Shown: positions 1 through 35,912, counted from the first letter of the stretch. The stretch is DNA of 64,000 bases from Candidatus Fervidifonticultor secundus (GCA_031459385.1 JAVKIP010000005.1:32001-96000), one strand, 5' to 3'. Translations and numbers: made by a program. The notes: generated from the sequence alone by a model not told the origin.

Positions 1-152
1 GCCCACCCCGACGCCTTCATCCACACGCCGCGCCCGCCCGGATCCCGCAGCGACACGTGGCCCCAGATCAGGTCCCCGTGATCCTCCAGGGCGAGGATGC
101 GGGACGCCAGGGCCACGCGCTCGCGCATCTCGTCGTCGCGAATGCGACTCAC
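1..152 (-). CDS. Class II aldolase/adducin family protein, 5' part only (runs off window start)
   Basis: Not in ORF track. Minus-strand translation gives (M)[55 protein letters not shown]...WMKASG is the class II aldolase N-terminal pattern. AGGAGG at 152-157; start is GTG 152 or ATG 128. Confidence 0.7.
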
Positions 153-183
153 CTCCTGTGGACGCGGGCCCTGCCGGCCCGCA

Positions 184-882
184 TCATCGCCCGCCTCCGA
201 CCAGCAGCAGTCCCGCGGCCAGGCTCGCCGCGCCCGCCGCCTGCTGCACGAGCCGCCGCGCGCCGGCCGCGCGCGACGAGGCCCGGAGCGCCGGCCACAG
301 GGCCAGGGCACCGACCGCGACCATACCGGCCAGGCTCCCGGTCGCGAACAGCCCCAGGGATGCGGCGGCGCGCGGCGACGGCGCCGCCACGGCCACCGCC
401 GCCACCGCGGCCCCGCTGCCCGCCAGCCCGTGGAGGCTCCCCACCAGGTACGCGGCCAGCGGCGCGTGCATCCAGCGCGGCGCCGTCGGATGGGCGTGCC
501 CGGGGCCGTGGCGGTGCACGTGGAAGTGCGTGTGCACCATACCCGGGGCGTGCGCGTGCGTGTGCACGTGCAGGCGCTCGCGTCGCGCCCGCGCCAGGGT
601 GAGCGCGCCCAGCAGGATCATCACAGCACCGGCGGCAACGTCGGCGCGGGCCGCGAGCCAGCCGGGCAGGCTCCGGCCCGATGCCGCCAGGAGCACGCCG
701 GCTGCGGCCACCACCGTGGCATGCCCGGCGCCCCAGGCCACGGCCACACGCAGGACCTCGCCGCGGCTGCGGCCGTGGGCCGCCATCGTCGACACCGCGG
801 CGAGGTGGTCCGGCTCCAGCGCATGCCGGGCGCCCAGCAGCAGCCCGTACGTCAGCACCAGCACGTCGTCGACGGGCATCAC
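184..882 (-). CDS. UreH/SodT/NiCoT-like nickel/cobalt permease with His-rich loop
   Basis: [12 protein letters not shown] (variant of the NiCoT RHAxDADH signature), HGLAGS motif, about 6 hydrophobic helices, His-rich loop [27 protein letters not shown]. Confidence 0.8.
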
Positions 883-2102
883 GGGCGCCGTCCCTGGGGG
901 AGATCTGCGGGCACAGGCCGGCGGTAGAAGTCGTCGTCCATCCGGCTCGCCCCGCCCTCCTGGCGCAGCATCGCCTCCCAGTCCTGCCGGATGAACGGGT
1001 CCTCCTCCCAGTAGGGAATCGCGCTGCCGCCCTCATCGAGGTGCATCGCGTTCCTGTCGAGCACCTCTTCCCCGGGCCGGCCGGGCTCGCGGCCGGTGCC
1101 GCGGCCGAACGGCCCGAACCAGGCCATCAGGCGCAGCGGCTCCCGGCCGACGCCGAAGTGCTGGTGGAACCACTGGCCGCCCATAGGCGCTGCGCTCACC
1201 ATGCCCACAGGCTCGTAGTCCTGGCGCACTACGCGGCTGGCCTGCCCCGTGGTCCAGGGCCGCGGGCCCACCTCGCGGGGCCACGCGTACGTGTACCCTT
1301 TCCCCTTGATGCAGATCAGCACCGCCGCCGACTCGTGGGCGTGTGCCTTCGAGTACCGGCCGGTCTCGTGCTGGCCGATCCACAGGTAGAAGACGTTTCG
1401 GTCCAGGTGGGGCTCCAGGCGTCGGAACCCGGGCGAGCGGCGGTTGTCGAGCGGCAGCGGGCAGTTGACCGCATCGGGAACGATGTTGGTGCGCACCATG
1501 GCCAGCCCGCGGAACGGGTCGGGCTCGATCTCCTGGAGGTTCGCCCGGTAGTAACCAGCGCCGCCGTCGTAGCGGTCGCGGAACGCATACGGGCAGTTGA
1601 AGACGAAGTCGGCGTTGCCGAACAGGTTCATGACGGCCGGCGCAGTGGTGCCCACCAGCAGCAGCGCCGGTCCCGACGCCATGCTGTTGATCAGGCGATG
1701 CGAGGTGTTCAAGGGGATCGTGAACAGCGACCCGGGCTGCCACTCGACGACCTCGCGGCTGCCGCCGTCGTCGGTCCACACCTCGGCGGCGCCGCGGCCC
1801 TCGACGACGAAGATCACTTCCTCATAGAGGTGGCGCTCGGGCTGCAGGGCCTCCGCGGGCGGGATCTCCACCACGTAGCATCCCCACAGGCCCTCGGTGC
1901 CGTAGAGCTGGATGAACGCGCCCCGTCCGCCCAGGCGGCGCCAGGCCCCCAGCGGCAGCTCCTGCACCCGCCGCACGCCGATGCCGCGGTGCACCGGGAT
2001 GCCTTCGGCTTCCATGAACAGGTCGTAGGGCGCGGGCGGGCGCTTCCATCGCCCCCAGCCGGCCCGCTGGTCTCCTGAGGGCTCCCGCCAGGGTCCGGTC
2101 AT
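879..2102 (-). CDS. Bicupin protein A (gentisate-dioxygenase-like cupin superfamily)
   Basis: Two cupin domains: ERHLYEEVIFVVEG...SHRLIN and KAHAHESAAVL...WFHQHF. ATG at 2102 with GGAG upstream. Confidence 0.8.
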   Translation of the reverse strand: MTGPWREPSGDQRAGWGRWKRPPAPYDLFMEAEGIPVHRGIGVRRVQELPLGAWRRLGGRGAFIQLYGTEGLWGCYVVEIPPAEALQPERHLYEEVIFVVEGRGAAEVWTDDGGSREVVEWQPGSLFTIPLNTSHRLINSMASGPALLLVGTTAPAVMNLFGNADFVFNCPYAFRDRYDGGAGYYRANLQEIEPDPFRGLAMVRTNIVPDAVNCPLPLDNRRSPGFRRLEPHLDRNVFYLWIGQHETGRYSKAHAHESAAVLICIKGKGYTYAWPREVGPRPWTTGQASRVVRQDYEPVGMVSAAPMGGQWFHQHFGVGREPLRLMAWFGPFGRGTGREPGRPGEEVLDRNAMHLDEGGSAIPYWEEDPFIRQDWEAMLRQEGGASRMDDDFYRRPVPADLPQGRRP

Positions 2103-2173
2103 CGGTCTCCTCGCCACGTCAGCGCGTCAGAGGATCGCCGCAGCATCGCGATGCTTCGACCCCCTGTGCCCGC

Positions 2174-2653
2174 TTACCGGAGCAGCGCCCCCCACAGCCA
2201 TCCGTCGGCGAACGGCAGGTGGAGCAGCCGCACGAACAGCAACCAGAACCCCAGCCAGGCCAGGACCGGCATCGCCAGCGAAACCGCCCACCCTTCCCGG
2301 GCCTGGCCGCGCAGGTAGGCGAAGACGAACAGCGGCACCGCCCGCGGGAACCCCACCAGCGCGATGGCCAGGAAGAACCCGCCCATCCAGGCCACCATGG
2401 TCAGGGTGCGGCGCAGTGCCACCGCTGGAGGCACATCTCGAGAGAGCTCGACGTCCATCGCCTCCCGTGGATGGGCGTCGTCCTGGCGGCGCAGGCACAG
2501 CACGGCCTCGGCGGCGGCCAGCGCCAGGAGGGGGACGCCGATGACGCGCGGGTACAGCGCGGTCTTGATGGGCCACGACGCCGTCTCCGCCAGCGCCCAG
2601 GCCGCCAGCAGCGCCACCGCCGTGGCGAAGACCGCGTGGCCGCTAGGTCGCAT
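2174..2653 (-). CDS. tctB: Tripartite tricarboxylate transporter small subunit TctB
   Basis: About 160 aa, 4 TM helices, YPRVIG and LFVRLLHLPF motifs, overlaps tctA stop. Confidence 0.85.
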   Translation of the reverse strand: MRPSGHAVFATAVALLAAWALAETASWPIKTALYPRVIGVPLLALAAAEAVLCLRRQDDAHPREAMDVELSRDVPPAVALRRTLTMVAWMGGFFLAIALVGFPRAVPLFVFAYLRGQAREGWAVSLAMPVLAWLGFWLLFVRLLHLPFADGWLWGALLR

Positions 2654-4163
2654 GGACGGCCTCCGCCGCGGTCCGGCGGTGCCCCCGGCGCTGCTGGAGC
2701 AACGTGGACAGCACGACGCCCGCCACCAGCACCATCAGCGCCACGACGACCGGGCGTCCCAGCCACGCCGCGCCATAGCGCGCCACCGAGATCCACAGGT
2801 AGCGCTCCGCCACGTCGCCCAGCACGAGACCCAGCACCAGCGGCGCCCGGGGCCACTGGTAGCGGACCATCAGGTACCCGAGCGCTCCGAAGGCGAGCAT
2901 CACGACCACATCGCCCAGGCTGTTGTTGGCCGTGTAGGCGCCGACGAACGTCAGCAGCACCAGCACCGGGATCAGCAGCGTCCCGCGGATGGTCGTCAGA
3001 CGGGCCAGGTGATGCAGGAACACCAGGCAGACGGCGACGGTGACGATGTTGGCCAGCACGATCGTCCAGACCATCGAGAGGGTGACGTTGAGGTGCCGGG
3101 TGAGCATATCGGGCCCCGGCGTCAGGCCCACCAGGAAGAACCCGCCGAGCAGGATGGCCATCGCCGAGCTGCCCGGCACTCCGAACGCCACCGTCGGGAT
3201 CAGCGCGCCGCCCTCCTTGGAGTTGTTGGCGGCGCCAGGCCCCAGCACGCCGCGCACGTCGCCCGTGCCGAAGGCCGCCCGCTCGTGTGGCGAGCGGACG
3301 CTCTGGGCGGCGTGCGCGTAGGCCAGCCACTGGGCGACACCGCCGCCCAGCCCCGGGATGATGCCGATGTACGTGCCGATCAGGCTGCAGCGGATGGTGA
3401 GCCAGAAGTGCCGGAACACATCGCGCACTCCGGCGGCCACGCCCGCCAGCCGTCCGGCCGGTGCCTGGCCGGCGATCGCCGTGCCCCGCACGGCCAGGTC
3501 GATGATCTCGGGGATCGCAAAGAAACCCACCAGCACTGGCACCAGGTCCAGGCCGTCCCACAGGTAGAGCGTGCCCAGCGTGTACCGGTGGTTGCCCGCC
3601 TGGGGATCCGAGCCGACGGCGGCGATCATCAGCCCCAGCGCGCCTGCCAGGAACCCCCGCAGCATCGCCCGGGGGCTGCGGCCGCTGAGGGACGCGATGA
3701 ACGCGATCCCCAGCACCGCCAGCATGAACAGTTCGGGCGAGCCGAACGTCAGCACCAGGGGCCGCACCACCGGGATCGCCGCCGCCAGCGCCGCGGCGCC
3801 GACCACCGCACCCACCAGCGAGGATCCCAGCGCGGCGCCCAGCGCGCGGCCCGCCTCGCCCCGCTTGGCCATGGCGTGGCCGTCGAGGACCGTGGCGGCC
3901 GTGGTCCCCTCGCCGGGGATGCCGAAGAGGATCGAGGTGATGTCCCCGGTGGTGGCCACCACGGCGTGCATTCCCAGCAGGAACGCGAAGGCCGCCACCG
4001 GCTCCATGCGGTAGACGAAGGGCAGCATCAGGGCCAGCGTGGTGCCCCCGCCCAGGCCAGGGAGGAGCCCGACCCAGAAGCCCACGGCGATGCCGATGAG
4101 CATGAAGCGCAGGGCCTGCCACTGGAGGACCTCGACGAGCGCCTGCAGCAGGGCTTCAAGCAT
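2643..4163 (-). CDS. tctA: Tripartite tricarboxylate transporter permease TctA
   Basis: GLLPGLGG, ILFGIPGEGTTAATVLDG, GPGAANNSKEGGALIPTVAFGVPGS motifs; start moved to MLEALLQ (4163). Confidence 0.93.
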   Translation of the reverse strand: MLEALLQALVEVLQWQALRFMLIGIAVGFWVGLLPGLGGGTTLALMLPFVYRMEPVAAFAFLLGMHAVVATTGDITSILFGIPGEGTTAATVLDGHAMAKRGEAGRALGAALGSSLVGAVVGAAALAAAIPVVRPLVLTFGSPELFMLAVLGIAFIASLSGRSPRAMLRGFLAGALGLMIAAVGSDPQAGNHRYTLGTLYLWDGLDLVPVLVGFFAIPEIIDLAVRGTAIAGQAPAGRLAGVAAGVRDVFRHFWLTIRCSLIGTYIGIIPGLGGGVAQWLAYAHAAQSVRSPHERAAFGTGDVRGVLGPGAANNSKEGGALIPTVAFGVPGSSAMAILLGGFFLVGLTPGPDMLTRHLNVTLSMVWTIVLANIVTVAVCLVFLHHLARLTTIRGTLLIPVLVLLTFVGAYTANNSLGDVVVMLAFGALGYLMVRYQWPRAPLVLGLVLGDVAERYLWISVARYGAAWLGRPVVVALMVLVAGVVLSTLLQQRRGHRRTAAEAVHAT

Positions 4164-4188
4164 GCCCGGTGCGCGCCCCGACGCGCGC

Positions 4189-5190
4189 CTACTCGAACCG
4201 GAAGAACTGGCTGAAGATCCGCACCACGTCGGCCGGCGCGCCCAGGACCTCCCGGATGACCCGCAGCGCCTGGTCACCGGGCACGAAGTCGATCTCGAAA
4301 CCCGCCCGCTCAGCTTCGGCCAGGAAGTCGCGGTCTTCGCTCACCCGCTTGAACGCCTCGCGGAAGAGCCTGACGCTCTCCTCCGGCGTGCCGGGCGGCA
4401 TGACGAAGGGACGCCCGATCTCCTCGGGCGTCGAGCGCAGGCGCATCACCGCCTTGGCCCGGGGCTCGGTCACCAGGTCCTCGTCCACCGGCAGCGCCCG
4501 GATAGCCGGGACCGTGGCCCGGGCGCGCACCACGGCCCGCACGAGCCCGCGGTCGATGAACGGCTTCAGCGACGAGTACGAGCCGGCGCGCCCGTCCACT
4601 TCCCGGCGTTCCACCGCCAGCATGATGTCCGCGCTCGAGGGGTACCCGCTGATGATCCGGAGGTTGAACCCTGCCAGGGCCTTGAGGAGCAGTGGGAAGT
4701 CGTAGGTGTTGGCGCCCGGGCCGGTGGCGCCGATGATGACGGCGGGGTCGGCCCGCCGGAGGTCGATCGCCTGCCGGTACGGCAGGTCGGCACGGATGGC
4801 CAGCACCGTGGTCTCGCTGGCGATGCTGCCCACCCACCCGAACCGCAGCATGTCGAACCGCATCCCTTCCACCTTCATGAGCTGGCCCACGACCAGGTTG
4901 CGGTTGAACAGCCCCAGCGTCAGCCCGTCGGGCCGGGCCACGGAGTAGACGTGATTGGCCGCCACGATGCTGTTGGCGCCGGGCATGTTCTGCACGATGG
5001 TCGTGGGGTTGCCCGGGAGGTACTTGGGCAGGTGGCGCGCCACCATGCGCGCGATGCGATCGTACCCTCCGCCGGCGGCGTAGCCGACGACGATCGTCAC
5101 GGTCTTGCCCGCCAGGCTGGGCTGTGGCTGCGCACCCGCCGTCGCGCTTGCCAGGAGCACGAGCACCGCCAGGACCGCGATGACCCTCAT
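4189..5190 (-). CDS. tctC: Tripartite tricarboxylate transporter substrate-binding protein TctC (Bug family)
   Basis: Signal peptide MRVIAVLAVLVLLASATAGAQP, IVVGYAAGGGYDRIAR, NMPGANSIVAAN, PDGLTL motifs. Confidence 0.9.
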   Translation of the reverse strand: MRVIAVLAVLVLLASATAGAQPQPSLAGKTVTIVVGYAAGGGYDRIARMVARHLPKYLPGNPTTIVQNMPGANSIVAANHVYSVARPDGLTLGLFNRNLVVGQLMKVEGMRFDMLRFGWVGSIASETTVLAIRADLPYRQAIDLRRADPAVIIGATGPGANTYDFPLLLKALAGFNLRIISGYPSSADIMLAVERREVDGRAGSYSSLKPFIDRGLVRAVVRARATVPAIRALPVDEDLVTEPRAKAVMRLRSTPEEIGRPFVMPPGTPEESVRLFREAFKRVSEDRDFLAEAERAGFEIDFVPGDQALRVIREVLGAPADVVRIFSQFFRFE

Positions 5191-5410
5191 CTCGATCCCC
5201 CCTGCCGCCGTCACGGCATCCCGCGTGGACCACCTCGGGGCCCTCCTCTTCCACCTCCGGCGCTGTGGCTCCTGCGCTGGGACCGTGTCCGCAGCGCGGC
5301 GCCCGGCGGCGCCCGGGGGCCGCCACAAGGGCTCGGCCCCGCGGCCCGCGTATTACCTCGGTGGGCCGCCCGAGGGCAGGCGGCGAAGGGGGCGTTTTAT
5401 GGAGCGGATG

Positions 5411-6505
5411 ATGACACGGCTTCCCGACGACTGGGGACAGATGGCATACCGCCGGTTCCTCGAGGCCGAGGGCATTCCCCTCGTCACAGGGCTGGCCGTG
5501 GACGACCTGCACGCCGTGGAGGTGGCGCCCTGGCCGCGCCTGGACGCCCGCGGCGCTTACATCCAGCTGACCGGCGCCGAGGACACCGACAGCGGCCACA
5601 TCCTCGAGATCCCGCCAGGACGGTCCACGGCCCCCGACCGACACCTCTACGAGGAAGTGTTCCTGGCCCTGGCCGGGCGCGGGACGTGCGAGGTCTGGAA
5701 CCAGGCCGGCGCGCACCAGACGTTCGAATGGCAGCGGGGCAGCGTGTTCGCCATCCCCCTCAACACGTCCCACCGCCTGCACAACGGCTCGGGCCGGGAG
5801 CCGGCCCGCCTGCTGGGCGTCACCACCGCCCCGTTGATGATCAACCTGCTGCGCAACCTCGACTTCATCTTCCGCTGCCCGTTCGACTTCACCGACCGCT
5901 TCCAGGGCCAGGCCGACTACTTCACCGGCGAGGGCACCCTCTACACCCGCCCGGATACTACCCAGAAGATCTGGGAGACCAACTTCGTGGCCGACGTCTA
6001 CCGGCTGGGGCTCTACGACTGGGTCGAGCGTGGGGCCGGCGGCAAGCACGTGAAGTTCGAGCTGGCCAACAACGCGCTGATCGCCCACGTCTCCGAGTTC
6101 CCGGTGGGCACCTACAAGAAGGCGCACCGGCATGGGCCCGGCGCCCACGTGGTGATCCTGGAGGGCGAGGGCTTCAGCCTGATGTGGACTGACCAGCACG
6201 AGACGTTCGAGGACATCCGGTGGAAGCCCGGGGCGATGTTCGTGCCGCCGGGGATGTGGTGGCACCAGCACTTCAACACCGGGCGGACGCCGGCGCGCTA
6301 CCTGGCCATCCGGTGGGGCAGCACGCGGTGGAAGATCACTCGCTACCTCGACTACCAGGGCGTGGACAAGAGCGCGAAGGCCGGCGGCAATCAGATCGAG
6401 TACGCCGACCAGGACCCGCGCGTCCACCAGCTCTTCGTCGAGCGCTGCCGGGCCAACGGCGTTGAAGTCAGGATGGACCAGTTCTTTGCGCCCGCGGCGC
6501 GCTAG
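5411..6505 (+). CDS. Bicupin protein B, paralog of bicupin A
   Basis: DRHLYEEVFLALAG...SHRLHN and KAHRHGPGAHVVILEG...WWHQHFN; shares EAEGIP, FEWQxGSxFxIPLNTSHRL and TTAP motifs with A. Start 5399, 5408 or 5411 (GGAG at 5401). Confidence 0.8.
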   Translation: MTRLPDDWGQMAYRRFLEAEGIPLVTGLAVDDLHAVEVAPWPRLDARGAYIQLTGAEDTDSGHILEIPPGRSTAPDRHLYEEVFLALAGRGTCEVWNQAGAHQTFEWQRGSVFAIPLNTSHRLHNGSGREPARLLGVTTAPLMINLLRNLDFIFRCPFDFTDRFQGQADYFTGEGTLYTRPDTTQKIWETNFVADVYRLGLYDWVERGAGGKHVKFELANNALIAHVSEFPVGTYKKAHRHGPGAHVVILEGEGFSLMWTDQHETFEDIRWKPGAMFVPPGMWWHQHFNTGRTPARYLAIRWGSTRWKITRYLDYQGVDKSAKAGGNQIEYADQDPRVHQLFVERCRANGVEVRMDQFFAPAAR

Positions 6506-6509
6506 CGCG

Positions 6510-7979
6510 ATGCACGAGTTCGACGAGGACCACATCCACCTCGCCGGCGACGACGGCGCGGCCGTCTACGTCGGCGACCGCGTGGTCCTGCGCAGCGTGG
6601 GCGTCGATATCGGCTCGTCGACCTCGCACATGATCTTCTCGCGGCTCACCCTCGAGCGGCAGGGCCAGCGGCTCTCCAGCCGCTTCGTCGTCACCGCGCG
6701 GGAGGTTCTGTTCCGCTCGCCGGTGATCTTCACGCCCTTCGAGCCCTCAGGCCGGCTCGATGCCCCGGCGCTGGCCCGCTTCATCAACGCCGCCTACAAC
6801 GACGCCGGCGCCCTGCCCGAGCAGGTCGATGCGGGTGCGGTCATCACCACGGGCGAGGCGGCGCGCCGCGAGAACGCCCGGGCCGTGGGCGAGCTCTTTG
6901 CCCGGCACGCCGGCAGGTTCGTCACCGCCACCGCCGGCCCCAACCTCGAGAGCCTGCTGGCCGCGCACGGGTCGGGCGCCGTGGAGTTCTCGAAGAATAC
7001 CACCGACCCGCTGCTCAACGTGGACATCGGCGGCGGCACCACCAAGTTCGCGATCTGCCAGGCCGGGCGCGCAGAGCACACCGGCGCCATCCACCTGGGC
7101 GCACGCCTGCTGGCCTGGGACCCGGCGGGCACCCTGGTCCGGGTCGAGGCCGCCGGCCAGCGGCTCGCGGCGGCCGCGGGCCTGGCCCGGCTCCCCGCAG
7201 TGGGCGACCGGCCCGCGCCCGAGGCGCTGGACCGGCTGGCCGACCACATGGCCGAGGTCGTGCTGCGCATCGTTCAGGGCGCCCGCGACACCGACCTCTG
7301 GATCACCGACCCGCTGCCGCCGGCACCCGCGTGCCGGCACGTCGTCGTCTCGGGCGGGGTGGCCGAGTACGTCTACGGTCGCGAGGCGCGCGAGTTCGGC
7401 GACCTGGGCCCGCGGCTCGCCGCTGCCGTGCGACGCCGCGCCGCGGCGGCGGGCCTGGCACTCTTGGACCCGCGGGAGGGCATCCGCGCCACCTGCATCG
7501 GAGCGTCGCAGTACACGGTGCAGCTGAGCGGCGACACGATCTTCCTCACCGATCCCGGGGTGCTGCCGCTGCACAGCGTGCCGGTGGTGCGCCTGCGGCG
7601 CGCCGGGCCGTCGGCAGACGTGGTGGCCGAGGCGCTGCGCCAGGGCATGGCCCGCCTCGACCTCACGCCCGACGACGCGCCGTTCGCGGTCGCGGTGCAC
7701 TGGCACCACGGCGCCGACTACGCGTCGCTCAGGGAACTGTGCGCCGGCATCACCGCCGCCCTGCCGCGCGGGGGGAACGGCCATCCCCTGCTGGTGGTCA
7801 TCGACGCCGACGTGGCCGGCCTGGTGGGGGCCCTGCTGCGGCAGGAGTTCGGGGTGCCGGGCGAGATCGTCTGCATCGACCAGGTGCTCCTGCGCGAGTT
7901 CGACTACATCGACGTGGGCCGGCCGCTCCCCGACCAGGGCGTGGTGCCGGTAGTGGTCAAGAGCCTGGTCTTCCGCTGA
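6510..7979 (+). CDS. eutA: EutA-family ASKHA ATPase (ethanolamine ammonia-lyase reactivase-like)
   Basis: SVGVDIGSSTSH, AVITTGEAARRENA, FVTATAGPNLESLLAAHGSGA, NVDIGGGTTK, SGGVAE, C-terminal VPVVVKSLVF; 4 bp after bicupin B stop. Confidence 0.9.
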   Translation: MHEFDEDHIHLAGDDGAAVYVGDRVVLRSVGVDIGSSTSHMIFSRLTLERQGQRLSSRFVVTAREVLFRSPVIFTPFEPSGRLDAPALARFINAAYNDAGALPEQVDAGAVITTGEAARRENARAVGELFARHAGRFVTATAGPNLESLLAAHGSGAVEFSKNTTDPLLNVDIGGGTTKFAICQAGRAEHTGAIHLGARLLAWDPAGTLVRVEAAGQRLAAAAGLARLPAVGDRPAPEALDRLADHMAEVVLRIVQGARDTDLWITDPLPPAPACRHVVVSGGVAEYVYGREAREFGDLGPRLAAAVRRRAAAAGLALLDPREGIRATCIGASQYTVQLSGDTIFLTDPGVLPLHSVPVVRLRRAGPSADVVAEALRQGMARLDLTPDDAPFAVAVHWHHGADYASLRELCAGITAALPRGGNGHPLLVVIDADVAGLVGALLRQEFGVPGEIVCIDQVLLREFDYIDVGRPLPDQGVVPVVVKSLVFR

Positions 7980-8177: not shown

Positions 8178-9449
8178 CTATGAGCCCGCCCGGCGGTACG
8201 CCGCCCGGGCTCCTCCCGCGCCATTCGGCCGGCACAGGTCGGGCACCGCCGCCACCGCCGCGTTGGCCACCAGCACGGTCGCCGCGATGGCGTAGAAGAC
8301 GGAGGGGAGCCCGTACCGGTCGGCGATGACCCCGCCGGCCAGCGGCGCGAGCGTCGCGCAGGCTGCCTGCGCCGTGAACAGCGCGCCCACGGTGGTCCCC
8401 TCGTACGCCCGCGGCACCACCCCCAGCGCCCAGCGGAAGATCGCCGGCCGCATCGAGTAGACGAAGAACCCCAGCAGCGCCAGCACGGCCACGAACAGCG
8501 GGCCCGAGCCCAGGGCCGCCACCGCCAGCACCACCAGGCTCGTGGTGAGCATCCCCGCCGTGGCCACGCGCTTGGGGCCGAGGCGGTCGGCAAGCGTCCC
8601 CGCCAGCGGGGTGGCCACCATGCCGGAGACCTGCACGAGGGTCATGTACAGGCCCAGCAGCGCCGCAGGCACGTGCAGCGTGTACACCAGGTACAGCGGC
8701 AGGAAGGTGCTCAGGCCCTGCTGGGTCAGAGACCGGATGCCCGAGATGCCGGCCAGGGCCATGAAGCGGGCGTTGCGCACCAGCGCCGCCAGCCCGCCGG
8801 CGTACTCCCGCGCCGTGCGGGCCGGACGGTCGCCGGAGGCACCCACCTGCGTCCGACGCAGCACCTCCAGCAGGGCCAGCGCCAGCGGCAGCCCGAGCGC
8901 CACCGTTGCCGAGAGCACGCCGCGCCACGCCAGCATGCCGACCAGCAGCCCGGCGGCCAGCGGCGCCACCACTTCGCCCACGTTGGCCCCGAGCTCGTGC
9001 AGGGCCAACCCGTAGCCGCGGCGGTCCGGATAGCGCGCCGACAGCGCCGTGATGGCGGCGGGGTGCCAGAGGAACATCGCCACGCCGACCACCGCCATGG
9101 CCGCGACCATCACGGGGAAGCTGCGGCTGAACACGATCGCCAGGTACGGCACCAACGTCAGTAGCAGCGATGCGGTCATGAGGAGGTCGCGCCGCCCCAG
9201 GACGTCTGCGACCGCGCCGGCCGGCAGGTTGACCACGATGCTCATCACCTGGCGCGCGCTGAGCAGCAGCCCCACCTGGCTGAACGACAGGCCCAGGTCG
9301 CGGGCGATGTAGGGCAGCAGCAGTCCGAAGCTGGCGGTCGCGGCGTGGTTCAGGGCGTGGCCGGCCGCGACCGCCCAGAGACCGACATTGCTGCGGTCCG
9401 GCCGCGGCAGCGCAGAGCGCAGGAGGTGCGGCGCAGTGCGCAGCGCCAC
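8178..9449 (-). CDS. MFS transporter (Fsr-like)
   Basis: C-terminal 423 aa of the 8178..11060 ORF; 12-TM pattern, GAVADVLGRR and GTLADRLGPKR motif-A loops; GTG 2 bp below the ThDP enzyme stop. Confidence 0.85.
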   Translation of the reverse strand: MALRTAPHLLRSALPRPDRSNVGLWAVAAGHALNHAATASFGLLLPYIARDLGLSFSQVGLLLSARQVMSIVVNLPAGAVADVLGRRDLLMTASLLLTLVPYLAIVFSRSFPVMVAAMAVVGVAMFLWHPAAITALSARYPDRRGYGLALHELGANVGEVVAPLAAGLLVGMLAWRGVLSATVALGLPLALALLEVLRRTQVGASGDRPARTAREYAGGLAALVRNARFMALAGISGIRSLTQQGLSTFLPLYLVYTLHVPAALLGLYMTLVQVSGMVATPLAGTLADRLGPKRVATAGMLTTSLVVLAVAALGSGPLFVAVLALLGFFVYSMRPAIFRWALGVVPRAYEGTTVGALFTAQAACATLAPLAGGVIADRYGLPSVFYAIAATVLVANAAVAAVPDLCRPNGAGGARAAYRRAGS

Positions 9450-9451: not shown

Positions 9452-11296
9452 TCAGCGGTTCTGCATGACGACGTCGACCAGGGCGGGCCGCCGCTCGCGC
9501 GCCACCACCCGGGCCGCGCGCGCGAGCGTCGCGCGCAGCTGGCCGGGGTCCTCGACCGGCCCCCAGGCCTCGATGCCGAAGCTGCGGGCCAGGGCCGCGA
9601 AGTCCACCGGCGGGTCCTTCATCGCCTGCCCGATGTGCGCACGCTCCACCGGGCGGCCGCGCGCCCGCGCCATCAGGACCTGGTGCTCTTCGTCGTTGTA
9701 GTAGGTCCGGTTGTTGAACATCACCACGAGCAGGGGAATCCGGTGGTGGGCCGCGGTCCACAGGGCGCTGGGCGTGTACAGCAGGTCGCCGTCGGGCTGG
9801 ATGTCGATGCACAGGCGCTGCCCGCCGTACGCCAGCGCGGCCCCCACCGCGTGCCCGAGGCCGTAGCCGACGCCGCCACCTTTGTGCGCGCCCACGTACG
9901 GCACGCGGCCTGGCCGCAACGGCCAGTCCCACAGGCGGCGCGTCCAGCCGCGCAGGGTGCGGTTGACCAGCACCCAGTCCTCGCCCCCGACAACGTCGCC
10001 CAGGTCGAGCGCCAGCCGCGGCAGCGCGATCGGCCGCGCCTCGCGCGCGCGCTCGGCCGCGGCGCGCCACCGGGCGCGCAGCGCGTGATGGAGGCGCGCC
10101 AGGCGCGCCCGGCGCCGGTCCAGGCGGGCCCGCAGGGCGCTCTGCCCCCGCACCAGCCGCGCGCACCGCGCAGCGAGCGCCGGCAGCGCCAGCGCCGTGT
10201 CGGCGGTGATGGGCAGGTCCACCGGCTGCAGCCGCCCGTGCTCCTGGATCCAGCTGCGCACCACCAGGTCGTTGAGCGAGATGTGAATCACCCGGGCGCC
10301 GGCGCGCAGCCGCGTCCGGGCCCGGCGCGCGGTCCGGTCGGTGGTCGAGGTGGCCATCTCGAGGTCGAAGACGTCGAGCGCCAGGACCACGTCGGCCTGC
10401 GGCAGCAGGTCGTCCTCGGCCCCGGTCAGGTCCAGCGGGTGGGTGTTGGGGAAGTTGAAGCGGCTGCCCAGGTCGATCACCGGGAGCGCCATCGTCTCGG
10501 CCAGCCGGACCAGCGCGGCCACCGCGTCCGGCGTGCGCCCCACGTAGTCGGCCAGCACGACCGGCCGCGCGGCCCCGGCGAGCCAGCGCGCCGCGACCTC
10601 CAGGGCGGCAGGATCGGCCTGCGCGCGGGCGGGCGGGGCGTACCGGCGCAGGTCCGGCAGCGCTACGGGCCCATCCAGCGCCTGTTCCTGCAGGCCCGCG
10701 TCGAAGCACAGGTAGACGGGGCCCTGCGGCTCGGTGGTGGCGATGCGGTAGCCGCGGACGAACGACTCCACGAACCCCGTCAGGCTGGCCGGCTGGTCGT
10801 CCCACTTCACGTAGTCGCGCACGGCGTTGCCCTGCACCAGGGCGGTGTGGATCCAGTCGATCCAGGGCCGGCGGGTCTCCACGGGCATGGGCCCGGTCCC
10901 GCCCAGCACCAGCACCGGCGTGCGGTCGAGCCAGGCGGTGTAGATGGCCATGGCTGCGTGCAGCAGGCCCACGACGTCGTGGACGATCGCCGCCATCGGG
11001 CGCCCGCGGGCTTTGGCGTAGCCCTGGGCCACGGCCACCGCGATCTCCTCGTGGTTGCACAGGACGATCTGCGGGGCGCGGTTGCCCCCGTAGTTCACGA
11101 TGGAGTCGTGCAGCCCCCGGAAGGTGGCACCGGGATTCAGCGCGGCGTACTCGATCCCGTACGCCCGCATGAGGTCCACCAGGAGATCCGAGCCGTACGC
11201 CGCGCGCTGCGTCCCCCGCGCGCGCCGGCGCGGCCGGCCCCCTGCTGCGGCCTCCGGCGCGCCGGGCTCAGGGGCAGGTGCCGGCGAAGCGCGCAT
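9452..11296 (-). CDS. ThDP-dependent enzyme (acetolactate synthase / benzoylformate decarboxylase-like)
   Basis: NPGATFRGLHDS, CNHEEIAVAVAQGYA, ThDP motif variant PDGD...NNRTY; GAGGAG upstream of ATG 11296. Confidence 0.9.
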   Translation of the reverse strand: MRASPAPAPEPGAPEAAAGGRPRRRARGTQRAAYGSDLLVDLMRAYGIEYAALNPGATFRGLHDSIVNYGGNRAPQIVLCNHEEIAVAVAQGYAKARGRPMAAIVHDVVGLLHAAMAIYTAWLDRTPVLVLGGTGPMPVETRRPWIDWIHTALVQGNAVRDYVKWDDQPASLTGFVESFVRGYRIATTEPQGPVYLCFDAGLQEQALDGPVALPDLRRYAPPARAQADPAALEVAARWLAGAARPVVLADYVGRTPDAVAALVRLAETMALPVIDLGSRFNFPNTHPLDLTGAEDDLLPQADVVLALDVFDLEMATSTTDRTARRARTRLRAGARVIHISLNDLVVRSWIQEHGRLQPVDLPITADTALALPALAARCARLVRGQSALRARLDRRRARLARLHHALRARWRAAAERAREARPIALPRLALDLGDVVGGEDWVLVNRTLRGWTRRLWDWPLRPGRVPYVGAHKGGGVGYGLGHAVGAALAYGGQRLCIDIQPDGDLLYTPSALWTAAHHRIPLLVVMFNNRTYYNDEEHQVLMARARGRPVERAHIGQAMKDPPVDFAALARSFGIEAWGPVEDPGQLRATLARAARVVARERRPALVDVVMQNR

Positions 11297-17006: not shown

Positions 17007-18092
17007 CTACCGGCGCCGGATGAACAGCTCCTGCCAGAGCTGGTCGTACCGCGCGTACCGCTCCAGGAACAGGCCCGGGTCCATGGCCCGGTACACGAAG
17101 CCCTGGTTCAGCGTCGGCGGGTTGGCCTGCACGAACGGGTGCGCCGGGATGCGCCCCACCTTGACCAGTTCCTGCTGTCCCTCGGGCGACAGGAAGAAGT
17201 CGATGAACAGCAGTGCCGCGTGGGGGTGCGGGGCGTACTTGGGGAGGGAGATGACGTGGGGCACGGCCACCACCGGCTCCAGCGGCCGCCACTCGATCGG
17301 CGCGCGGCGCCGCTTCAGGCGCTCGGGCCGGTGGTTGTAGATCGTCGGCGACATGTGCACCTCGCCGGCCACGATCAGCTCGGCCAGGAGGGTGTGTCCC
17401 TTCCGGATCAGGGGCTGCTGCTCGCTGAGCCGGCGGAAGAACTCGAGCCCCCTGGCCTCGCCCCAGTGCTCCAGCAGGGTCGCGAGCCACACCTGGTCTT
17501 CGGCCTCGATCCCGATCCGGCCGCGCCACCGAGGGTCCAGGAGGTCCTCGTAGCGCCGCGGTGCGGTGGCGTCGGCCACCAGGGTGGTGTTCCACGCCGC
17601 CACCAGCATGTTGTAGCGCGTGGCCACCCAGTAGCCCCTGGCGTCCTTGGCCTGGCGGGGGAACCCGCCGGCGCGGGGGGTGAAGAACGGCTGGCCGTAG
17701 CCGTCCTTGAGCATCTTGGCCACGTCGATGCCCGTACCCTCGAAGAGGTCGGCGACGTACTTGCGGCCCCGATACTCGGTGATGATCTTCTGCGCCACGT
17801 CCTCGCCCGAGGCGCGGTAGATCTCGCCGCGGATGAACGGGTACTTCCGCATGAACGCCTCCAGGACGGGCTGGGACTCGTCCAGGTCCATGGACGTGTA
17901 GATCATCAGGGCGCCCTCGGCCCGGGCGCCGGCTTCGAGCCGCGCCTGGCGGTCGGGGCCGCGGTAGTTCGCGACCTCCGCCACCGTGCCCGATCCCGCG
18001 CCCGACGGAGCGGCCGCCACCATCCCCGAGGACGCCAGGGAACCCAGCAGTACCGCGATCGATCCCCACCACCAGGTGCGCCGCGCGATCAT
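17007..18092 (-). CDS. Fe3+/AfuA-family ABC substrate-binding protein
   Basis: Signal peptide, EGALMIYTS, YEDLLDPRWRG, APHPHAALLFIDFFLSPEGQ. Confidence 0.88.
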   Translation of the reverse strand: MIARRTWWWGSIAVLLGSLASSGMVAAAPSGAGSGTVAEVANYRGPDRQARLEAGARAEGALMIYTSMDLDESQPVLEAFMRKYPFIRGEIYRASGEDVAQKIITEYRGRKYVADLFEGTGIDVAKMLKDGYGQPFFTPRAGGFPRQAKDARGYWVATRYNMLVAAWNTTLVADATAPRRYEDLLDPRWRGRIGIEAEDQVWLATLLEHWGEARGLEFFRRLSEQQPLIRKGHTLLAELIVAGEVHMSPTIYNHRPERLKRRRAPIEWRPLEPVVAVPHVISLPKYAPHPHAALLFIDFFLSPEGQQELVKVGRIPAHPFVQANPPTLNQGFVYRAMDPGLFLERYARYDQLWQELFIRRR

Positions 18093-18300
18093 CGTCCTCC
18101 ACCCCCGATGGACAGCCCGTGCGTCCGCGGCGCCGCCGCGCCGCGGCGTGCGGTCGCGCCCTGTCTACTCCAGCCGCTCCTCGGGCACCTGCTGTGGCAG
18201 CGCCGCGGCCGGGGCAGCCGCCCGGAGGGATGCTCGCGCGCCGCGCCGTAGTCTCAGGGCAGCCGCGCGCGCCGACAGGCGGCGTGGCCGGGAGGTGCTC

Positions 18301-19335
18301 GTGGTGGGCAGCGACGGCGAGGGACGCGTCTTCCTGCGGGGCATCACGTCGGAGAGCTACGGCCTGGGCGAGCTGCGGCGGCGGCAGCGCGAGGCGCCGC
18401 GGGTGCGGCCGGCGGGCACGGTCGTGGACGACGCGTCGGTGGGCCACTCGGGCGACTCCAGCCAGTCGCGCACCTGGTGGATCCTGGGCCCGGGTGACGA
18501 CCCGTTCCTGACCCAGACGATCCAGATGCACTTCGTCGAGCTCTTCCCCGGCGGCGCCAACCGCGGCCACGGCCACCAGAACGAGGCGACCTTCTACATC
18601 CTGGAAGGCCGCGGCTACGAGATCCACGACGGCCAGCGGTACGACTGGGAGGAGGGCGACTTCGTCGTGGTGCACAACGACTCCGTGCACCGCCACTTCA
18701 ACGCCGACCCTGCGCGCCGCGCGGTCGCCATCGTCATCAAGGCCAAGGCGGCCTGGATGTACCTGGGCCTCTGGCAGCAGGGCCGCGGCGGGCCGGTCGT
18801 GGACGGCGACCGGTACGGGCCCCCCGAGGACTGGTCGCGGCTGTGGACCCCGGGAGTGACCGCCCGCAAGAAGGTCGTCAAGCCGTCGGATGCGCCCTGG
18901 GAGGTGACGCGGGACGGCCGGGTCCGGGTGCTGTGCTCGCCCGCGCGCACCGACGTCCGCGTTTTCAGCGTCGACGTCTACCAGCAGGAGATCCCTGGCG
19001 GGAGCCGCTCGGCCAGGCACTGGCACATGGCGGACGAGGCGCTGTACGTGATGGCCGGGCGGGGTTACAGCCTCCACTGGGACGTCGAAGCCGAGATCGC
19101 CGACCGCTACTACGCGCGCGTCGCGCGGGAGCCGTCGCGCTGGGAGTTCGGGCCGGGCGACCTGCTCTACGTGCCCCACAACACCGTGCACCAGCACGTC
19201 AACGCCGACCCGCACGACTCGCTGGTGCTGCTGTCGGCGCAGAACCGGCTGTTCAAGCTCCTGGGCTACGATGCGGTGATCTACCTGGAGGACGCGCCCG
19301 AGTACGCCCGGGCCCAGGCCGCGCCGGCGCGCTGA
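18301..19335 (+). CDS. Bicupin protein C with two complete metal-binding motifs
   Basis: GHGHQNEATFYILEG...VHRHFN and RHWHMADEALYVMAG...VHQHVN; GGAGG at 18291. Confidence 0.82.
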   Translation: MVGSDGEGRVFLRGITSESYGLGELRRRQREAPRVRPAGTVVDDASVGHSGDSSQSRTWWILGPGDDPFLTQTIQMHFVELFPGGANRGHGHQNEATFYILEGRGYEIHDGQRYDWEEGDFVVVHNDSVHRHFNADPARRAVAIVIKAKAAWMYLGLWQQGRGGPVVDGDRYGPPEDWSRLWTPGVTARKKVVKPSDAPWEVTRDGRVRVLCSPARTDVRVFSVDVYQQEIPGGSRSARHWHMADEALYVMAGRGYSLHWDVEAEIADRYYARVAREPSRWEFGPGDLLYVPHNTVHQHVNADPHDSLVLLSAQNRLFKLLGYDAVIYLEDAPEYARAQAAPAR

Positions 19336-22201: not shown

Positions 22202-22738
22202 CTACGGGATGAACGAGAGGTTGTACTGCGGCTGGTCGGACGTCAGCAGCACAACCTTTTTGAGCGCGATCTTCCACGCGCCGTCCACCGGCCGCAGCCG
22301 GTACTCGCAGCGCGCCGCAAACAGCCGCGGGGCGTTGAGCCCCTCCTGGCCGGGCCCACCCGGCCGGATCTCCGCGATCAGCTGGCGGCAGTGGACGACC
22401 GCCTCGCCGCTGCTGCCGTCGGCGCGGACCTCGACGTTCGAGACGAACCGCAGCGTGCGCGACGGGGGGTTCTGGTCCAGCACCGGCGTGCGCGTCAGCC
22501 GGTAGACCCGTTCGTGCAGCCGCCGCCGGTCGTCGTAGATGATGGCCACTGCCGCGGCCGGCTCCTTCTCGGGGTCGATCGGCAGCCAGTACACCGCATC
22601 GTCCGTGAAGAGCGCCTCCCACTCCTCGAACCGCCGCTCGTCCAGCAGCCGGGCCTCGGCGAACAGGAACCGCTCGGCCTCCGGGACCGTAAGCGCGGGG
22701 GCCACCGGTGCTACCTCCGGGCCATCAGACGCTGCCAC
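22202..22738 (-). CDS. Aromatic ring-hydroxylating dioxygenase beta subunit
   Basis: FLFAEARLLDERRFEEWEALFTDDAVYWLP, PPSRTLRFVSNV, WKIALKKVVL. Confidence 0.93.
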   Translation of the reverse strand: MAASDGPEVAPVAPALTVPEAERFLFAEARLLDERRFEEWEALFTDDAVYWLPIDPEKEPAAAVAIIYDDRRRLHERVYRLTRTPVLDQNPPSRTLRFVSNVEVRADGSSGEAVVHCRQLIAEIRPGGPGQEGLNAPRLFAARCEYRLRPVDGAWKIALKKVVLLTSDQPQYNLSFIP

Positions 22739-23985
22739 TGGCGGTAGAGCGCGCGCTGGGGCGCCTCATCGGTCGTGTGCCCGATCCACTCGCCCGCGTC
22801 GTACCGCTCGCGGTGCTGGCCGCGGTTGAGCAGGTTCCACGGCTCGCCCCGCGCCCGGACGCCGCTCTGCACCTCGGTGAACACCTCGATGTCATCGGGT
22901 GAGCCGAACCCGGCCGGGCCGAAGAAGCGCTCGTGGCCGCGGAACCGGCCCTGGTTGATGGCGTCGGGCACGCCCTCCAGGGCGTAGACGTAGAGCTGGA
23001 CCTCGGTCCGGTCCACGGCCTTGGGAACGATCACCCGCAGGTGCGTCTCGAACAGATAGAGGTTGGGGAAGACGAAGATGTTCCGGCGCGCCGAGATCTC
23101 CAGCAGCTGATCGTCGCCGTAGCGGGCGCGCATCGCCTCTGCGTACTCCGGGTACCGGTGCATCATGCGCGCGGTCCAGCTCGAGTTGGGGTTCAGGCTG
23201 CCGGGCCGCTCCAGCACGCCATGGCCGCCCGCCAGGCCCCGGGTGCAGCCGGCCTGCCGGTACTGCTGGGTCTCCTCCACCGACGACTCCTTCGAGAGGG
23301 CCAGCACGCGCTGCCAGGAGAGGTGCACGTAGTTGCCGTGGTAGCCATCGGCGCCGTTCTCGGCCTGCAGCTTCCAGTTGCCCGGGTACTCGTAGCGGTG
23401 CGGCGGCAACGAAACGACGATCGCCTCGACCGGCGAGCGGCCGAACCACCAGTCGATGTAGCGCCGCACCGGGGCCAGGTGCTCGGCCAGGCTGGCGCCC
23501 TCACTGGAGAGGTTCACGAAGAGCAGCCCGCGGTAGCTCTCCAGCCGGCCGACGGGGACGAGCCCGTAGCGGCTGCGGTCGAAGTCGTCAGGGTACCCGG
23601 TGCTCTGCGCCATGCCGATCAGCGCGCCGTTGTTGGCGTAGACCCAGTTGTGGTAGCGGCAGCGGAAGAAGTTGGAGTGGCCCCGCTCCTGGCGGCAGAC
23701 GACCGCGCCCCGGTGCCGGCAGCGGTTGTAGAGAGCGTAGATCCGGCCGTCCTCGTGGCGGGAGAGGATCACGGGCTGGGTGCCGACGACCACGGTCTTG
23801 TAGTCGCCCGGCGCCGCCAGCTCCGAGGAGTGCCCGACGTAGACCCAGCTGCGCTCGAAGATGCGGTCCATCTCCGCCGCGAACACGTCGGGATCGGTGA
23901 AGACGGCGCCGTGGACCCGGAACGCGCCAGGATCGTCCCGTACCAGGTCCGCGTACGCCCCTACCCGGTCTTCCGTCACCGCCAT
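22711..23985 (-). CDS. Aromatic ring-hydroxylating (Rieske) dioxygenase alpha subunit, benzoate/phthalate-like class
   Basis: Rieske CRH...CRYH; mononuclear Fe site NWKLQAENGADGYHGNYVH and PDDIE. Confidence 0.94.
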   Translation of the reverse strand: MAVTEDRVGAYADLVRDDPGAFRVHGAVFTDPDVFAAEMDRIFERSWVYVGHSSELAAPGDYKTVVVGTQPVILSRHEDGRIYALYNRCRHRGAVVCRQERGHSNFFRCRYHNWVYANNGALIGMAQSTGYPDDFDRSRYGLVPVGRLESYRGLLFVNLSSEGASLAEHLAPVRRYIDWWFGRSPVEAIVVSLPPHRYEYPGNWKLQAENGADGYHGNYVHLSWQRVLALSKESSVEETQQYRQAGCTRGLAGGHGVLERPGSLNPNSSWTARMMHRYPEYAEAMRARYGDDQLLEISARRNIFVFPNLYLFETHLRVIVPKAVDRTEVQLYVYALEGVPDAINQGRFRGHERFFGPAGFGSPDDIEVFTEVQSGVRARGEPWNLLNRGQHRERYDAGEWIGHTTDEAPQRALYRQWQRLMARR

Positions 23986-24057
23986 CGCCGCGCGCGCCCC
24001 CCGGCGCCACCTGCAGCGGCAACGCCCTCCTGCCCGCTGCGCTGCGGCGGCGCCGGC

Positions 24058-24070
24058 ACGAGTATAGCAT
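24058..24070. promoter_or_regulatory. Overlapping divergent -10 elements (extended -10 TGcTATACT on minus; TAGCAT on plus)
   Basis: AGTATAGCAT at 24061-24070 is an AT-rich patch in the gap between the divergent Rieske and ABC operons. Confidence 0.5.
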
Positions 24071-24131
24071 GCAGGAAGCGCTGTCCCCTCCACGAACCCA
24101 GGCCAGAAAGCGGTCCCGGGGGGGTCCTGAG

Positions 24132-30064: not shown

Positions 30065-30173
30065 GCCACTGTCCCTCCTCCCTTTGGGTGCAGCGGGCCG
30101 GCGCGACCGACGCGGGGCGGCATCACGGTCCCGCCGGGCTCGCCCCGCACCTGCGCCCTGTGCCGTCCTACGG

Positions 30174-31451: not shown

Positions 31452-31453
31452 GC

Positions 31454-32689: not shown

Positions 32690-32730
32690 CCCGTCCTCTT
32701 CGCCGCCGGATGGCCGGGGACCGGTTCCCC

Positions 32731-33525: not shown

Positions 33526-33537
33526 CGCGAAAGATCG

Positions 33538-34349: not shown

Positions 34350-34352
34350 CGA

Positions 34353-35843: not shown

Positions 35844-35912
35844 ACCCCTCAACCCCTCTGCCCGTCGTGGCGTCGGCCCGCACTGGCGTGCGGCAACGCG
35901 AGACGTCCCGTG

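Follow-up and report, generated by a model that had tools for sequence, protein, structure and literature searches.

A stretch of 64,000 nucleotides (nt) from Candidatus Fervidifonticultor secundus (GCA_031459385.1 JAVKIP010000005.1:32001-96000), called the window here in its full length, contains a pair of genes in which cupB, encoding a two-domain cupin (bicupin B), is followed on the same strand by a gene for an ATPase of the ASKHA superfamily that matches EutA. The conservation of this pair, the predicted complex of its products and the pathways that surround it point to a helper for cupin enzymes that is driven by ATP and has not been described before. A literature search, the coverage of which left out subscription journals, found no paper describing the cupB/EutA-like pair.

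The G+C content of the window (72%) gives rise to many long spurious open reading frames (ORFs), so third-position G+C was used to pick genes; the genome from which it comes is 97.6% complete, with 5.5% contamination. The cupB gene sits within an ORF spanning positions 5105-6505 and ends in a TAG stop at 6503-6505, and its translation, together with the stored gene call P0127, places the most likely start at 5399 or 5408 rather than at the TTG that opens the ORF at 5105. The ATG of the EutA-like gene lies at 6510, which bears out the 4-nt spacing after bicupin B that had been noted in an earlier reading of the DNA from sequence alone (the sequence-only reading). Divergently from the pair runs an operon of tctC, tctA, tctB, the gene for a second bicupin (cupA), a nickel/cobalt-type permease gene and a class II aldolase-family gene, and the tight linkage claimed for it is confirmed, since gaps and overlaps are at most ~70 nt. 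All three components of the tripartite tricarboxylate transporter (TTT) are present as adjacent genes by their Pfam matches, the true start of tctA is probably below position 4189, and the permease gene and the cupA stop overlap by 4 nt (Table 1). A long ORF at 149-1036 on the minus strand is an out-of-frame artefact, and the permease gene is the one at 184-882. Within the spacer between tctC and cupB no sigma-70-like site was seen and the single terminator-like site equals the shuffled expectation, while an alignment of eight orthologous regions, which was poor, revealed no clear conserved operator. As for expression, none of the four sequencing runs listed for this DNA is of RNA.

Table 1. 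Features of the window, with the gene pair first; positions are counted from the first nucleotide of the window.
Feature	Position	Strand	Remarks
Bicupin B (cupB)	5399..6505	+	~365-368 amino acids (aa); Cupin_2, two stretches
EutA-like ASKHA ATPase	6510..7979	+	489 aa; PF06277 3.5e-120
Acidic, His-rich N-terminal tail of EutA-like protein (residues 1-26)	6510..6587	+	absent from EutB-linked EutA
Divergent intergenic region tctC/cupB, presumed promoter and operator region	5329..5398	.	from gene coordinates; ~70 nt
TctC-family periplasmic binding protein, TTT system	4189..5328	-	PF03401 1.2e-10
TctA, large membrane subunit	2643..4277 (longest ORF)	-	PF01970 2.9e-122
TctB, small membrane subunit	2174..2653	-	PF07331 1.8e-11
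Bicupin A (cupA), cupB paralogue without its own EutA-like gene	879..2117	-	Cupin_2 1.6e-10
NicO-family (Ni/Co-type) permease	184..882	-	232 aa, His-rich loop; PF03824 1.7e-8
Class II aldolase-family gene, start only; runs off the window	3..190	-	full length at L082:17439-18200, Aldolase_II 8.3e-41
Major facilitator superfamily (MFS) transporter, convergent with the EutA-like gene, start approximate	8178..9440	-	MFS_1 1.7e-46
Thiamine-diphosphate enzyme	9452..11296	-	TPP_enzyme_N/M/C; PRK08327-like 277 bits, cut-off 456
Cupin C	17986..19335	+	
Rieske ring-hydroxylating oxygenase, alpha and beta subunits	22202..24300	-	benzoate/anthranilate dioxygenase-like, 251 bits, under cut-off
UbiD-like gene	28502..30181		
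Two family III CoA-transferases	30174..32914		
GntR/FCD regulator	32731..33789		
UbiX-like flavoprotein	33567..34349		
Second UbiD	34353..35912		

The EutA-like protein matches PF06277 over its full length (model positions 3-474 of 475) and is 26-36% identical to four further members of the EutA family, of which three are EutB-linked, in a full-length alignment that shows the same architecture. Its ASKHA motifs for phosphate 1, phosphate 2 and adenosine, D33-x-G35..T38, D172-x-GGGT and S281-G-G, vary hardly or not at all across a 66-row alignment. Nevertheless, the protein falls under every NCBIfam EutA equivalog cut-off, with a best score of 311 bits against 598 and scores of 210-299 bits against cut-offs of 769-952 for the other three models. 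A quick maximum-likelihood tree of 74 rows contains a branch, with a Shimodaira-Hasegawa-like approximate likelihood ratio test (SH-aLRT) value of 95, that parts 70 cupin-context proteins from four others, of which three have verified EutB neighbours and the fourth (L093, G336) comes from a genome without EutB; the separate clade that had been proposed as a check on the idea is thus recovered. The cupin-context clade carries GGGTTK and TGEAAR where the EutB-linked proteins have GGGT-x-N and TGET-x-K.

The genomic surroundings differ from those of EutA as well. When the translations of 46 ORFs of the window were scanned with Pfam, no EutB, EutC, bacterial microcompartment (BMC) shell or B12-binding domain appeared, and no EutB, EutC or BMC shell gene was found in the whole genome, which upholds the absence of eutB, eutC and microcompartment genes noted for the window, extends it to the genome and answers the concern that eutBC might lie elsewhere in it. 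EutB is also absent from 12 other genomes carrying the pair, nine of which are outside the Actinomycetota sample described below. By comparison, in five control genomes (G245, G291, G344, G507 and G647) EutB lies directly downstream of EutA.

To place the pair in a wider context, a pattern scan of one genome per species yielded 79 loci, and tblastn yielded 80 EutA-like matches. The loci span Armatimonadota-like lineages, Chloroflexota, Actinomycetota, Bacillota, Acidobacteriota, Rokubacteria, Myxococcota/Binatia and Pseudomonadota. Of the 80 matches, 53 (53 of the 71 assessable) have a cupB-family gene as their immediate upstream neighbour on the same strand, one has it as the immediate downstream neighbour, and for ten it is 1.3-8 kb away; nine matches with less than 1 kb of upstream DNA are not assessable, and for seven no cupB-family gene was found. 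An EutB match occurs in none of the 79 loci, and 119 neighbouring ORFs from 15 diverse loci, when scanned with Pfam, included many genes of aromatic catabolism but none for EutB, EutC or a shell protein. The survey that the sequence-only reading had called for, of cupins against eutBC beside EutA homologues, therefore favours the cupins, and the synteny of cupin and EutA-like gene is conserved across phyla.

Within the phylum of the source organism, 94 genomes were analyzed, which include kin and are not independent, so that the counts carry no statistic. The EutA-like gene is found in 35 of them and the cupB family in 39; both are present in 35 of the 35 with the EutA-like gene, and 55 genomes have neither. 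In 33 of these 35 genomes the two genes are at most 620 nt apart on one strand, and in the other two they are on different contigs. Of the four genomes with the bicupin only, two are 59% and 69% complete, and two have a cupB match truncated by the end of a contig. The pair is patchy in the phylum, being present in 17 of 31 genera, so that the two genes have been gained and lost together.

Two further samples bear on the relationship between EutB and the bicupins. Among 201 genomes of Actinomycetota, five have an EutA-family gene, of which three have the cupB family and lack EutB, and two have EutB directly downstream and lack the cupB family. Among 301 genomes of Pseudomonadota, three have a match, two of them adjacent to EutB and without the bicupin family, and the third being an alphaproteobacterial genome (G006, the source of locus L067) that lacks EutB and has five EutA-like genes along with 38 matches to the cupB family, of which 24 are nearly full length. 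Several cupB-family genes stand in tandem in that genome, a striking expansion of the bicupin family. In the sampled Actinomycetota and Pseudomonadota, EutA-family genes thus adjoin EutB or a bicupin, never both. The strong Pfam match to EutA would fit an ordinary EutA whose client is an adenosylcobalamin enzyme with its gene elsewhere, but the 97.6% complete genome and the 12 other pair genomes without EutB, the sub-cut-off equivalog scores, the separate clade and the mutual exclusion of EutB-linked and cupin-linked genes all speak against this explanation, which is close to refuted and was rejected.

Prediction of the complex supports binding between bicupin B and the EutA-like protein. Co-folding of the two gave scores of 0.71, 0.72 and 0.68, and the best of three controls scored 0.00, so the pairing passes the complex-prediction check that had been suggested for it. 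Among 157 solved complexes, 116 attain that mark, as against 2 among 215 mismatched pairs, a calibration that is rough here as own alignments were used. The co-folding runs share at least 84% of contacts, with a partner predicted local distance difference test (pLDDT) value of at least 76. The predicted interface joins residues 401-408, 433-446 and 457-458 in the C-terminal domain of the helper to residues 94-98, 108-115 and 128-133 in the N-terminal barrel of cupB; the invariant cupB residues G95, E110 and N129 fall within it, and the sequence of the predicted docking region differs between the EutA-like protein and EutB-linked EutA.

The bicupin side of this interface belongs to a confidently modeled protein. 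The AlphaFold2 (AF2) model of cupB (pLDDT 91) has a bicupin fold in which the candidate metal ligands of the N-terminal cupin are H82, E85/E86 and H125, the second His position being occupied by Phe or Tyr, and those of the C-terminal cupin are four invariant histidines, H243, H245, H289 and H291; the candidate ligands are conserved in 51-57 of 57 rows. Its best fold matches are gentisate 1,2-dioxygenase (3bu7; Z 21.6, root-mean-square deviation (rmsd) 4.8, 282 aligned) and salicylate 1,2-dioxygenase (2phd; Z 21.2-21.3), with which the manganese bicupin MncA (Z 20.6) and oxalate decarboxylase (Z 20.4) effectively tie. By sequence, cupB scores 21.7 bits with the gentisate dioxygenase model TIGR02272 (cut-off 442) and 32.4 bits with a 5-aminosalicylate dioxygenase model (cut-off 650), and its only solved relatives are auxin-binding protein and one oxalate decarboxylase, both weak.

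The three cupins of the window had been taken for paralogues, which is correct for A and B and incorrect for C. Bicupins A and B are identical at 130 of 368 positions (35%), cupA is the second match of the genome to the cupB-family profile (7.6e-131), and the core of the predicted docking surface is retained in it, so one helper may serve both. Cupin C matches the A/B profile only at E 2.7e-6 over 76 positions and, by this comparison, is a member of another bicupin family. Homologues of cupin C (46-60% identity) are found within a few kb of the pair in eight loci (L005, L006, L016, L024, L033, L034, L057 and L072).

The EutA-like protein begins with an acidic, His-rich extension, MHEFDEDHIH, as the sequence-only reading had observed, and its first 26 residues are outside the Pfam and NCBIfam EutA models. 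Within this tail H2, H8 and H10 are invariant in 15 close homologues. Of the 70 cupin-context proteins, 64 have at least three His in the 35-residue stretch ahead of the first ATPase motif, as does none of the four others, and the sequence of the tail is variable though recurrent among the cupin-context proteins. The wider family comprises 784 representatives (50% identity, E up to 1e-30), and in a 166-row FastTree tree His-rich and His-poor proteins are interleaved. Therefore, the His tail is frequent in the family and not defining, and part of the family may have another client. One His-poor paralogue, encoded at L094:7199-8761 (contig C4 of G006), has no cupB-like gene within ~7 kb, and its gene lies among those for response regulators, a methyltransferase and two proteins that match no Pfam family.

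In the AF2 model of the EutA-like protein (pLDDT 84.9) a disordered tail (residues 1-21, pLDDT below 50) precedes an ASKHA core and a C-terminal alpha/beta domain (residues ~350-489). A fold search with the whole model returned generic ASKHA matches (Ppx/GppA at Z 17.8, FtsA, PilM and HgdC-type activators, with DdrA at Z 11.5), and no solved relative was found by sequence. In a feature search, the nearest named non-EutA clusters were of methanogenesis marker 14 with a score of 0.81, a level that a third of shuffled proteins reach, so that this is no more than a lead.

The genes around the pair describe the conditions under which it is likely to act. When 18 kb of DNA upstream of the window was also read, the divergent operon was found to run on into pcaC, pcaH/G and a CoA-transferase gene, with a PcaC match of 162.9 bits (cut-off 155.7) and a match of 220 bits (cut-off 126) to PcaG, the alpha subunit of protocatechuate 3,4-dioxygenase. 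The aldolase-family protein scores 80 bits with the 3,4-dihydroxyphthalate decarboxylase PhtC (NF053537), under the cut-off of 200, and because pca genes lie downstream it is more likely to decarboxylate a dihydroxy-dicarboxylate to protocatechuate than to cleave a sugar phosphate; cleavage of the product of the cupin by this 'aldolase', as once supposed, is not borne out by the continuation of the operon into pcaC, pcaHG and the CoA-transferase gene. Elsewhere in the window are genes for a Rieske oxygenase, two UbiD-type decarboxylases, a UbiX-like flavoprotein, two family III CoA-transferases, amidohydrolase-type decarboxylases and several importers. On account of this gene content and the pca continuation of the operon, the setting is an aromatic-acid catabolic island and not one of ethanolamine use, and the substrate is probably an aromatic carboxylate brought in by the TTT system. 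The tctC gene is conserved beside the pair in close relatives, homologues of the thiamine-diphosphate enzyme (61-81% identity) are found in 11 related loci, and MFS homologues (52-69% identity) stand beside the pair in eight (L008, L011, L013, L014, L016, L024, L034 and L037).

Several observations on neighbouring genes can be recorded in their own right. An EntS-like MFS_3 transporter is fused to an EutA-like protein in the metagenomic gene call P0248, such a transporter gene is a neighbour of the pair in two actinobacterial genomes (L095:8653-9999 and L096:2-2140), and the MFS_1 transporter of the window holds a place that matches that of MFS_3 beside the pair elsewhere. The UbiD-like gene, the two family III CoA-transferases, the GntR/FCD regulator, the UbiX-like flavoprotein and the second UbiD of the window (28502-35912) form a module typical of CoA-dependent phthalate-type decarboxylation; genes for UbiD, CoA_transf_3 and GntR proteins adjoin the EutA-like gene at locus L080, and at locus L021 UbiD and CoA_transf_3 genes with a GntR regulator are all within 6 kb. 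At four loci of the Myxococcota/Binatia type (L065, L068, L074 and L081) the EutA-like gene is found among two or three genes for haem-oxygenase-like proteins (Haem_oxygenas_2 / TenA-PqqC), with NMT1-type binding proteins also nearby, and in L068, L074 and L081 a cupB-like gene is 1.6-2.8 kb downstream of it. At positions 36868-38821 of the window, a gene for a heavy-metal-resistance/LTXXQ periplasmic protein and a cupredoxin-domain gene adjoin the aromatic cluster. Finally, three large ORFs with a coding-type G+C bias (L082:12628-14505 on the plus strand, and 40145-41824 and 44868-46565 of the window; 625, 559 and 565 aa) match no Pfam family at 1e-4 or 1e-5.

The permease of the divergent operon had suggested that nickel or cobalt is handled by this system. 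It matches PF03824 with 34.6 bits (cut-off 27.7) over model positions 10-186 of 287, and is outside the HoxN/NixA subfamily (TIGR00802 19.2 bits against 333; NicT 18.6 against 450). Among the 39 genomes of the phylum with the bicupin family, a permease follows bicupin A in four, this one and G431, G432 and G433, and it is absent after cupA in loci L004, L006, L008 and L009, so a nickel/cobalt permease as a regular part of the system finds no support. Because the link is rare and the permease is also found in genomes without the pair, it gives only a weak hint that nickel or cobalt is the cupin metal. The three other genomes (contigs G431:C38, G432:C3 and G433:C123) belong to one other genus and have a 57-58% identical NicO-like permease directly after bicupin A; the nearest homologues of the window permease are in that other taxonomic family and not in the family of the source organism, a hint that the arrangement of cupA and permease has been transferred.

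The absence of EutB from genomes with the pair, the synteny across phyla, the complete co-occurrence within the phylum and the predicted complex together argue that the helper works with cupins. The proposal that this EutA homologue acts on cupins is thus upheld so far as its partner is concerned, a cupin and not a B12 enzyme, and the evidence leaves metal insertion, reactivation and service as an ATP-using subunit unseparated. In the mechanism that we favour, the two genes would encode a two-protein unit, in which cupB would be a cytoplasmic bicupin metalloenzyme acting on an aromatic or hydroxy-aromatic carboxylate and the EutA-like protein a dedicated ASKHA-fold ATPase that docks on its N-terminal cupin barrel. 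Binding and hydrolysis of ATP would open or remodel the bicupin for the loading, exchange or restoration of metal, the disordered acidic His-rich tail, where present, would hold the incoming or outgoing ion, and the same helper would probably serve bicupin A of the divergent operon too. We infer the binding in the cell, the metal centre as the client site, the identity of the metal and the substrate, and judge the chances to be about even that the EutA-like ATPase docks on the bicupin and opens it by an ATP cycle in which the metal centre is loaded, exchanged or restored. More tentatively, as a possibility to which we give less weight than to its denial, the cupin-linked EutA-like proteins could be the first metallochaperones of the actin/Hsp70 fold, prying open a folded bicupin to insert, proof-read or replace a trapped metal, with the tail as a hand-over arm.

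A number of findings weigh against this mechanism. The support for it is computational throughout, and binding is a prediction; conservation at the interface hardly exceeds that of the remaining residues, being 0.73 against 0.65 for the rest of cupB (permutation p 0.048) and 0.63 against 0.61 for the rest of the EutA-like protein (p 0.40). In the wider family, at least three His are present in only 66 of the 140 assessable among the best 150 representatives (E at most 4e-82), and a well-supported subclade of 32 rows, 27 of which have two His or fewer, includes the G006 paralogue that lacks a nearby cupin. The EutA-like protein has no conserved cysteine cluster (no cysteine is invariant in the 66 rows), and the fold search gave no special likeness to a known metallochaperone. 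Seven loci are without a cupB-family gene in the DNA at hand: L065 and L067 carry other bicupins directly upstream of the EutA-like gene, L071 has a partial cupB match at a contig end, L069, L075 and L078 are short of downstream DNA, and L077 has no cupB-family gene within 10 kb. Three longer EutA-like proteins (1142, 898 and 1001 aa) are fused to MFS_3, a methyltransferase and an unassigned region, and none of the three is a cupin fusion, which is weak evidence. The link of bicupin A to the permease, found in only four genomes, counts in the same direction, as does the permease in genomes without the pair.

Other explanations account for some of the same observations. The EutA-like protein could be a stoichiometric catalytic subunit that uses ATP for phosphorylation, adenylation or an ATP-driven carboxylation or decarboxylation of the substrate, with the bicupin performing the second half-reaction; the tight translational coupling (4 nt) and the predicted complex are compatible with this, the ASKHA superfamily is rich in kinases (ROK, pantothenate kinase and Ppx/GppA fold matches at Z 12-18), and the class II aldolase family represented next door often takes phosphorylated substrates. 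We nevertheless consider it unlikely, given the full-length alignment with EutB-linked EutA at 26-36% identity and with the same architecture, a His-rich disordered tail that has no obvious role in a kinase, and the ratio of helper to bicupin genes, which is 1:2 here and 5 to ~24 near-full-length copies in G006, unequal numbers that fit a helper better than a fixed catalytic subunit. In addition, EutA is described in the available text of PMC5821096 as a protein-remodelling factor and not a kinase.

That last description also provides a direct analogy for a strict reactivase in the sense of EutA (PMC5821096), which would act after turnover to free the bicupin of a tightly bound dead-end species, such as an oxidised metal, an inhibitor-like product or a suicide adduct, and would deliver no metal at maturation. 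Since about half of the wider family is without the His-rich tail, carriage of metal cannot be the core function that its members share. Ring-cleaving dioxygenases with non-haem iron are inactivated by oxidation, and dedicated reactivating ferredoxins such as XylT exist for them. The His/Asp/Glu tail in most cupin-linked members suggests handling of metal, though, and no redox cofactor motif for re-reduction is present, so that we rate a strict reactivase as distinctly unlikely. The two proteins could also be neighbours in a pathway or a regulatory circuit only, with the ATPase serving a different client, or working as a scaffold or a sensor, and making no contact with the bicupin. The weak conservation of the interface, the few family members without a nearby cupin and the ability of folding models to score pairs high without real binding would all be expected in that case, yet co-occurrence in 35 of 35 genomes, adjacency kept across at least eight phyla in otherwise different neighbourhoods, and a complex score of 0.71 against 0.00 for three controls make this very improbable.

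Comparison with known systems helps to define what the proposed ATP-driven opening of a bicupin would share with them. EutA clears EutBC of damaged cofactor in a step that requires ATP, according to the available text of PMC5821096, and this serves as the model for the proposed mechanism. The EutA-like protein resembles EutA (PF06277) in its full-length family match, its ASKHA ATPase motifs and the position of its gene beside a presumed client, and differs in the absence of EutBC, the sub-cut-off equivalog scores, the separate clade, the extra His-rich tail, GGGTTK and the bicupin as client. To our knowledge, every role described for EutA-type reactivases is in the repair of B12 enzymes. The reactivases of diol and glycerol dehydratases (DdrAB, PduGH and GdrAB) release damaged cofactor from their client in an ATP-dependent manner, and DdrA (2d0o), an ASKHA-type large subunit, matches the EutA-like model with Z 11.5, rmsd 4.3 and 250 aligned; however, it ranks 46th, under Ppx/GppA, FtsA, PilM and HgdC-type activators, and so shows no special likeness, and in contrast to these systems there is no small-subunit gene here and the client is not a B12 enzyme. 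The HgdC-type activators and the ATPase subunits of benzoyl-CoA reductase (1hux, 4eht and 9gai, Z ~15) are ASKHA ATPases that switch on a metalloenzyme with ATP, but they drive the transfer of electrons and have a bridging [4Fe-4S] cluster bound by conserved cysteines, whereas the 66-row alignment of EutA-like proteins contains no invariant cysteine.

Other comparisons are with proteins that deliver metals and with cupins themselves. HypB, UreE/UreG, CooJ/CooC and COG0523 proteins are nucleotide-dependent metallochaperones with His-rich segments, built on P-loop GTPases or ATPases. The proposed nucleotide-driven delivery of metal and the His/Asp/Glu-rich disordered tail would be common to these and the EutA-like protein, while the latter has an actin/Hsp70-type fold and about half of its wider family lacks the tail. 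The gentisate and salicylate 1,2-dioxygenases (3bu7 and 2phd), which have a three-His iron site in the N-terminal cupin, are the best fold matches of cupB and share its aromatic-acid context; cupB is only 13-16% identical to them, its family scores are far below the cut-offs, and it lacks that site, having His/Glu/His there and the full His set in its C-terminal barrel. We know of no helper ATPase for these dioxygenases. MncA of Synechocystis (PDB 2vqa) is the top Foldseek match of cupB (E 5.2e-17, template modeling (TM) score 0.51) but is 12% identical to it and is exported by the Tat pathway, whereas no signal peptide is visible in the cupB sequence; no ATPase partner has been described for MncA. 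MncA is a manganese bicupin with two metal sites in which metal is trapped at folding, and cupins bind metals in the Irving-Williams order and can trap an ion as they fold (PMC4192464, available text). The same text calls a delivery system for MncA hypothetical, and notes Hsp70-type chaperones as an untested option (PMC4192464).

The present analysis contributes a phylum-wide table of co-occurrence, the either-or split between EutB and bicupin in two phyla, a docking prediction with controls, and the finding that the His tail is missing in about half of the wider family. If the proposed role is correct, a large sister clade of EutA that spans phyla and is tied to bicupin metalloenzymes would bring a very common metalloenzyme fold within the reach of ATP-driven enzyme repair or maturation, and would supply the delivery system that is still called hypothetical for cupins in the available text of PMC4192464. 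If these proteins are indeed metallochaperones, they would explain how cytoplasmic cupins obtain the right metal despite the Irving-Williams order and the locking of metal at folding. In practical terms, the bicupins of aromatic-acid pathways may need their EutA-like partner for activity in another expression host, and the name 'ethanolamine ammonia-lyase reactivating factor EutA' is probably wrong for thousands of database entries from genomes that lack ethanolamine lyase.

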